Shown here: one piece after another, positions 60,112 to 60,556 of the stretch
Layout: each line of letters begins with the position of its first letter
Numbering within the stretch: the first letter of the stretch is position 1
Sequence record: MZ502379.1
Direction: 5' to 3' (one strand)
From: Escherichia phage vB_EcoM_Shinka
DNA length: 64,000 bases
Notes under the pieces: generated by a model
Told to the model about the DNA's origin: nothing
The model's database searches: none
The model's input: the letters and a program-made list of their open reading frames with translations, nothing else
Translations under genes and position numbers: made by a program

Positions 60112-60222
60112 TTAGTAAATTGATTTACCAAAGTATTTGTACCAAGTCGGACGTTGAGCAATTTTTTCATCTAAGCGTGCTTGACTTATCGCAATGGACG
60201 CTTCGGACGGGACATAATTTCC
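60112..60222 (-). pseudogene. denV: denV (endonuclease V, pyrimidine-dimer glycosylase) 3' remnant
   Basis: Only ...[31 protein letters not shown] matches the C-terminal about 35 aa of T4 DenV; upstream is unrelated and occupied by a promoter and an internal-protein gene. Confidence 0.7.
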
Positions 60223-60242
60223 TCCAAGTAGTTGATGAATGT

Positions 60243-60272
60243 ATAGTATCAAAACCCTTGGAGGAAGTAAAC
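60243..60272 (-). promoter_or_regulatory. T4-type early promoter lying where denV 5' sequence would be
   Basis: Minus strand GTTTAC-ttcctccaagggttttga-TACTAT. Confidence 0.5.
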
Positions 60273-60274
60273 AA

Positions 60275-60556
60275 CTATTTTTCTGAAGCGCCTGAAATAT
60301 ATTTTTCAAGACGTTGTTTCATCAGCGAGCCGTTCTTAGCGATTTCTTCCGGTTTATCGCACATACGCAACAAGGCTTCAAGCTTAACGATATCACTGGT
60401 GCGCTCAAATTTGCGAGTATCTATCTTACTAGCAAGTTCAGAAATACGTGCTAATAGACTTTCAGCTTCAACCAAAGCTGCACCTAGCTTAGTTGCAAAT
60501 GTGTCAGTAGCTTCGTTAAGAATAGATTCTGATAAAAATTCACTATATGTTTTCAT
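60275..60556 (-). CDS. small internal protein with capsid targeting sequence (about 93 aa from [10 protein letters not shown])
   Basis: CTS-like N-terminus at the second Met of the track ORF. Confidence 0.6.

Follow-up and report, generated by a model that had tools for sequence, protein, structure and literature searches.

Endonuclease V, the product of denV, is a pyrimidine-dimer DNA glycosylase/AP lyase, and catalysis by the T4 enzyme needs the alpha-amino group of the N-terminal Thr2 together with Glu23. T4 v- mutants carry out no phage-encoded dimer excision and their sensitivity to UV light is roughly doubled. It is likewise a classical observation that T2 is devoid of v-gene function and more UV-sensitive than T4. 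Our literature search on T2, the v gene and UV sensitivity found nothing relevant, and a review of T4 relatives does not discuss denV.

In T4, the gene belongs to a series that runs e, ipIII, ipII, denV, vs.8. T6 carries regB directly behind gene e, with nothing in between, and in T2 gene e is followed by ipIV and then by a conserved element upstream of vs.8, with no ip93, ip86 or ipIII. The block between e and vs.8 or regB thus differs in gene content among T4, T2, T6 and the DNA described here. Many relatives of the latter, among them Pu-Krd-SF4, Lutter, G2133 and 348Ecol098PP, possess a full-length, 137-codon denV at the very position of the sequence studied below, between the same two internal-protein genes. 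Deletions between short direct repeats are a classical deletion mechanism in the rII region of T4. Here, we describe a locus within a 64-kb window (the whole stretch of DNA that was analysed) that is very probably a dead denV relic, generated by a 310-bp deletion between such repeats.

Gene order around the denV relic

The 64 kb of the window form the left part of a T4-like (Tequatrovirus) genome, colinear with T2 and T4 from rIIA onward. All genes around the relic are encoded on the minus strand, in the order e, ip93, denV relic, ip86, ipIII, vs.8 (Table 1), and in this lineage ip93 and ip86 are the usual upstream and downstream neighbours of denV, respectively. The flanking internal-protein genes encode an MKTYQEFIAE-type capsid-targeting leader ending in Glu and match PHROGs 3499, 2667 and 5341; they specify T4-type internal head proteins, for which cleavage and packaging are predicted. 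The small internal-protein genes resemble one another only in this N-terminal leader of ~10 aa. The ipIII orthologue has a sigma-70-like promoter of its own. Gene e is immediately preceded by two T4 late-promoter motifs in tandem; none was seen ahead of the denV relic or of any small internal-protein gene.

The distal edge of the ip/denV block is marked in T4, T2 and the window by a conserved element of ~70 nt containing a CCTCAT/ATGAGG hairpin, whatever gene precedes it. Its counterparts lie at ~2380-2440 of the compared T4 segment and at ~7370-7430 of the compared T2 segment. The element may represent either a recombination junction or an RNA element; compared with shuffled sequence, it shows no significant gain in folding stability (z -1.6), and an Rfam search of positions 58400-61200 returned no match.

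Table 1 Features at and around the denV relic (positions in the 64-kb window)
Feature	Position	Strand	Remarks
nudE	61079-61534	minus	
Tandem T4 late-promoter motifs	61055-61075	minus	TATAAATA
Gene e (T4-type lysozyme)	60553-61041	minus	proximal edge of variable ip/denV block
ip93, small internal head protein gene	60275-60556	minus	93 aa; ATG at 60556; stop 60275-60277; PHROG 3499
Program-made ORF over relic	60112-60309	minus	TTG start; 65 aa
Promoter-like sequence	60243-60272	minus	GTTTAC (60272-60267), 18 nt, TACTAT (60248-60243)
Original denV Shine-Dalgarno sequence	60220-60225	minus	GGAGGA; retained
9-codon ORF	60186-60215	minus	MSRPKRPLR*; read from original denV ATG (60215-60213)
Deletion junction	60207-60219	minus	one hybrid repeat copy, AATTATGTCCCGT
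denV relic	60112-60219	minus	codons 103-137 and stop of RB69-type denV allele
ip86, small internal head protein gene	59845-60105	minus	86 aa; MKMYQEFIVE leader; PHROG 2667
Sigma-70-like promoter of ipIII orthologue	59840-59812	minus	
ipIII orthologue	59205-59783	minus	192 aa; 94% identical to T4 IPIII
Conserved ~70-nt element	59100-59178	minus	GGGAACAACCTGGACCTCATGATT..ATGAGGGATTCCCGCCAACCTGTAATAAGGTCGAGCC
vs.8 homologue	58488-59075	minus	92% identical to T4 Vs.8; distal edge of variable ip/denV block

Only the C-terminal end of DenV is encoded

A 65-aa open reading frame had been placed over the relic by program, of which the C-terminal part alone is derived from denV. Its N-terminal 30 residues are not DenV and correspond to the 3′ end of ip93, read out of frame, followed by the intergenic promoter/Shine-Dalgarno (SD) region. 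The denV-derived part aligns with residues 102-136 of T4 endonuclease V in PDB entry 1VAS and 103-137 in 2END (E ~3e-16), with positions 100-138 of the 139 in PHROG 1183 ('endonuclease V N-glycosylase UV repair enzyme'; E 1.2e-7) and, in a tblastn comparison, with residues 102-137 of a full-length relative (E 2e-18). It is identical to the T4 enzyme at 29 of 35 residues, the aromatic WYKY segment included. Homology to the DenV family is confined to these C-terminal 35 residues. An earlier, sequence-only reading of this DNA had likewise recognized just the last ~35 codons of endonuclease V; this is the right extent of the remnant, and the match is far beyond chance. A Pfam scan of the 65-aa ORF reported nothing, the family model requiring a longer piece.

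Unlike T4 endonuclease V, the relic is devoid of residues 1-102 and of a good in-frame start codon. The endonuclease V domain of ~137 aa is hence incomplete, with codons 1-102—and with them Thr2 and Glu23—absent, and to judge from its sequence the relic cannot be a working member of the family. The missing portion was not detected elsewhere: DenV residues 1-101 had no tblastn match in any part of the window, alignment with full-length alleles revealed no N-terminus hidden in another frame, and searches with full-length T4 and RB69-type DenV retrieved no second DenV-like sequence from the window (tblastn; next best E >1). G8, the closest overall relative with the same deletion, served as a proxy genome for the remainder, and positions 64,000-169,650 of it contain no second DenV-like sequence either.

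A 310-bp gap bounded by direct repeats

When the window was aligned with the full-length Pu-Krd-SF4 locus, a single gap of exactly 310 bp became apparent, with near-identical sequence on either side; a database allele with the same deletion, aligned alongside, showed the same single 310-bp gap. In the intact allele this segment is bounded by a direct repeat matching at 12 of 13 positions, AATTATG[A/T]CCCGT (nt -4 to 9 and 307-319 of full-length denV). Copy 1 (AATTATGACCCGT) begins 4 nt ahead of the ATG of intact denV and runs through codon 3, and copy 2 (AATTATGTCCCGT) falls in codons 103-106, 310 bp downstream. A single, hybrid copy remains at the junction in the window, and its variable base at 60212 is T, the copy-2 state. 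The alignment is colinear across the junction, without any foreign or filler DNA in between. For break points placed arbitrarily, we calculated a chance expectation of ~6e-7 for a 12/13 match, and because it is so improbable by chance, the junction structure bears the signature of slippage or illegitimate recombination. T4 denV contains neither copy of the repeat.

Upstream of the junction, the window has kept the ip93 stop codon, a 50-nt spacer, the GGAGGA SD and the denV ATG, and two further full-length alleles possess the same SD, ATG and upstream sequence. The relic locus therefore resembles full-length RB69-type denV (as in RB69, Pu-Krd-SF4 and G2133) in its genomic position, flanking ip genes, promoter-like sequence, SD and ATG, and the 3′ 108 nt of the G2133 allele are identical to the relic; it differs in being 310 bp shorter, with one direct repeat consumed. 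The sequence-only reading had proposed that the rest of denV was replaced by an early promoter and the 3′ end of an internal-protein gene. Both do adjoin the relic upstream, but they are native neighbours of the gene, and the missing part corresponds to a 310-bp deletion instead.

The ancestral locus would accordingly have been a 137-codon RB69-type denV between two small ip genes, an arrangement found in many Tequatrovirus and Mosigvirus phages. Replication slippage or illegitimate recombination between the repeats would have removed one repeat plus everything between the two, so that only the last 35 codons were left, together with the promoter-like sequence, SD and ATG ahead of them. Spontaneous T4 rII deletions are similar in that short direct repeats bound the lost segment and one copy stays at the junction; the denV deletion differs in being a natural allele that persists in wild phages rather than one selected in the laboratory.

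Expression signals left at the locus

Since 310 equals 3 x 103 + 1, the surviving denV ATG reads into a 9-codon peptide, and the relic lies in another frame. That frame opens only at a TTG inside the -10 region of the promoter-like sequence, with no SD in front of it; in principle, the relic could be translated from this TTG (~60240) on read-through transcripts. Read as sigma-70 hexamers, the promoter-like sequence consists of TTTACT and TACTAT separated by a 17-nt spacer and agrees with the consensus at 8 of 12 positions; our sigma-70 consensus scan did not call it. It is conserved with the spacer between ipII and denV in T4 (GTTTAC...TGATACTAT), and the record of phage Lutter has a promoter annotated at the equivalent site. 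This putative element is probably a T4-type early promoter.

Several GenBank records place an ORF of 46-50 aa over the relic, named either 'endonuclease' or 'hypothetical'. In the records of JM17, FL18 and B1.1, a 46-aa ORF with a TTG start (~1180-1320 of the compared segments) is labelled 'endonuclease'. In JM10, FL12 and FL23, whose relic has undergone a 1-bp deletion, a 49-aa ORF (~1180-1329 of the compared segments) is called a 'hypothetical protein'. Such annotations appear to be artefacts on a pseudogene, the 'endonuclease' label being misleading.

The same deletion in other phages

A 37-nt junction probe, with arms too short to match intact alleles, identified 15 database records that represent 13 phages (G4498, G8, BF15, Phaginator, F27, 235Ecol030PP, JM10, JM17, FL18, FL12, FL23, FL44 and B1.1). 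These phages originate from Germany, Poland, Denmark and the USA. With an equivalent probe for intact copy 2 and its context, we obtained 186 records, RB69 among them, and the deletion is thus present in ~7% of the sequenced carriers of this denV allele family. The nearest relatives of the deleted allele are Tequatrovirus and Mosigvirus isolates, for example G4498, BF15 and G8. Exact searches for both junction variants returned the G8 genome only from IMG/VR and nothing from JGI metagenome contigs, and our literature search found no paper describing this denV deletion.

Five phages labelled as Mosigvirus (F27, JM10, JM17, FL18 and 348Ecol098PP) are 98-99% identical to Tequatrovirus isolates at this locus and differ by ~10% in the e/nudE flank. 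This indicates either recombinational exchange of the ip/denV block or mislabelled taxonomy.

All 13 database phages share the 310-bp deletion at the same repeat pair with the window and differ from it by an A at 60212 (the copy-1 state) and within the relic, which has acquired either non-synonymous changes (one or two) or a 1-bp deletion. The T-type junction was not found outside the window in the phage collection, IMG/VR or the JGI metagenome contigs. Between 59776 and 60678, G4498 and BF15 deviate from the window at three positions only: 60212, 60185 (Ser to Asn in the relic) and 60158 (Ala to Asp in the relic). The window agrees with the full-length alleles at each of these sites, and the two substitutions, present in G4498, BF15 and G8, affect positions conserved even in T4. 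Reading 60212, 60185 and 60158 in this order, JM10, FL12 and FL23 have A, G and C together with the 1-bp deletion; F27, JM17 and FL18 have A, A and C; and G4498, BF15, G8, 235Ecol030PP, Phaginator and B1.1 have A at each site. The A-type alleles form a graded series, that of an apparently decaying pseudogene.

Comparison with T2 and T6

The sequence-only reading had taken the truncated denV as support for a T2-type identity of the genome. We rebuilt the T2 genome from AP018813 (163,826 bp) and found no DenV-like sequence in it, not even a relic (tblastn, best E 4.6). The order e, ipIV, vs.8 is common to all seven T2 records and to SV76, which show 100% identity in this region and contain no relic; more than 300 other records share most of this e-ipIV-vs.8 block. 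Mean identity between the window and T2 amounts to 95.9% across 90% of the window. The best matches over 25 kb were to SF2-1, G8 and Lutter, at 95-97% identity; no record in the phage collection reached 99% over 25 kb, and T2 was not among the best matches. The window thus possesses neither the T2 gene architecture nor 99% identity to T2, and a T2-type identity does not hold.

The agreement with the missing v function of T2, which had also been pointed out, stands insofar as T2 is without denV. It does not extend to the way in which the gene was lost. At this position T2 and T6 have no functional denV either, yet theirs is a whole-gene absence in another cassette architecture, as opposed to the internal deletion in the window; the missing v function therefore has different structural origins. 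The lack of denV is common and has arisen through several structural routes within the variable block, and it is no marker of T2 ancestry.

In the AP018813 record, the vs.8 homologue (6750-7330 of the compared segment) is split into short CDSs (e.g., 6941-7114), an indication of frameshifts or of a pseudogene. The same record contains many clearly mis-transferred product names, as exemplified by 'valyl tRNA synthetase modifier' for ipIV.

Discussion

Could the locus instead be that of T2 or a T2-like phage, the relic being the very basis of the missing v function? That T2 does lack denV, in keeping with its classical UV sensitivity, speaks for this idea. Nevertheless, with all seven T2 records and SV76 arranged as e, ipIV, vs.8 without a relic, with no credible DenV match in T2, with the window only 95.9% identical to T2 over 90% of its length and with no 25-kb match at 99% in the phage collection, we regard it as exceedingly improbable. 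The variability of the e to vs.8 region among T4, T2, T6 and the present lineage—evidence that shuffling does happen here—would also fit a cassette replacement, in which a promoter and internal-protein module had overwritten the N-terminal part of denV. However, the full-length alleles share exactly the same ip gene, intergenic sequence, SD and ATG, and the junction holds no foreign sequence, just a 310-bp gap flanked by direct repeats, making an overwriting event highly improbable as well.

A small gene under selection, encoding a C-terminal DNA-binding peptide or acting as a regulatory upstream ORF for ip86, might be suspected from the occurrence of the relic and the 9-codon ORF in 14 phages, from the intact promoter-like sequence, SD and ATG, and from the 46-50 aa that some annotators call 'endonuclease'. 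We consider this quite improbable: it is the repeats, and no domain border, that determine the end points; the in-frame ORF can begin only at a TTG, which is situated in the -10 region and lacks an SD; in other deleted alleles the relic has acquired non-synonymous changes at conserved residues as well as a frameshift; and the catalytic residues are gone. As to an artefact of sequencing or assembly, repeats can make assemblies collapse, and the T-type junction is known from the window alone; at 13 bp, however, the repeat falls far below the length of any read or k-mer liable to such collapse, and the same 310-bp gap recurs in 13 independently sequenced phages whose relics have diverged, which needs real evolutionary time. 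The chance of such an error is practically negligible. A denV relic created by repeat-mediated deletion is, in our judgement, the explanation to be held with confidence.

As a kind of event, deletion between direct repeats is already well known; the T variant of the junction in the window has not been seen elsewhere. One of three events would account for it: a second deletion resolved to the left of the mismatch, a chance A-to-T change at the single informative base, or, in a mixed infection, template-directed conversion by an intact allele. The flanks, identical to those of G4498 and BF15, favour common descent with the A-type alleles, and the full-length-allele state at all three differing sites favours independent deletion or conversion. 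We tentatively consider that RB69-type denV, with its 13-bp repeats 310 bp apart, may be a deletion hotspot at which a UV-repair gene has been lost more than once, although we would stop short of calling this probable. If so, the T junction and the undecayed relic of the window might, with the same reserve, represent a second, later loss, separate from the A-type deletion of the 13 sequenced phages.

Having neither a start codon in the right frame nor the catalytic core, the locus cannot supply DenV, and we infer that DenV activity from it has been lost. By analogy, the phage should behave like T4 v-, with no phage-encoded excision of cyclobutane dimers and a higher UV sensitivity. For annotation, this means that the short 'endonuclease' ORFs placed over the relic in several GenBank records cannot encode the enzyme. 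A UV sensitivity similar to that of T4 v- is predicted for the phage of the window and for at least 13 further isolates of possible therapeutic use, which bears on their UV inactivation and environmental stability. Recurrent loss, if true, would suggest that coliphages of gut, manure and sewage are under weak selection for UV repair, or none. More generally, denV emerges as a dispensable accessory gene, of which one allele is structurally prone to deletion.
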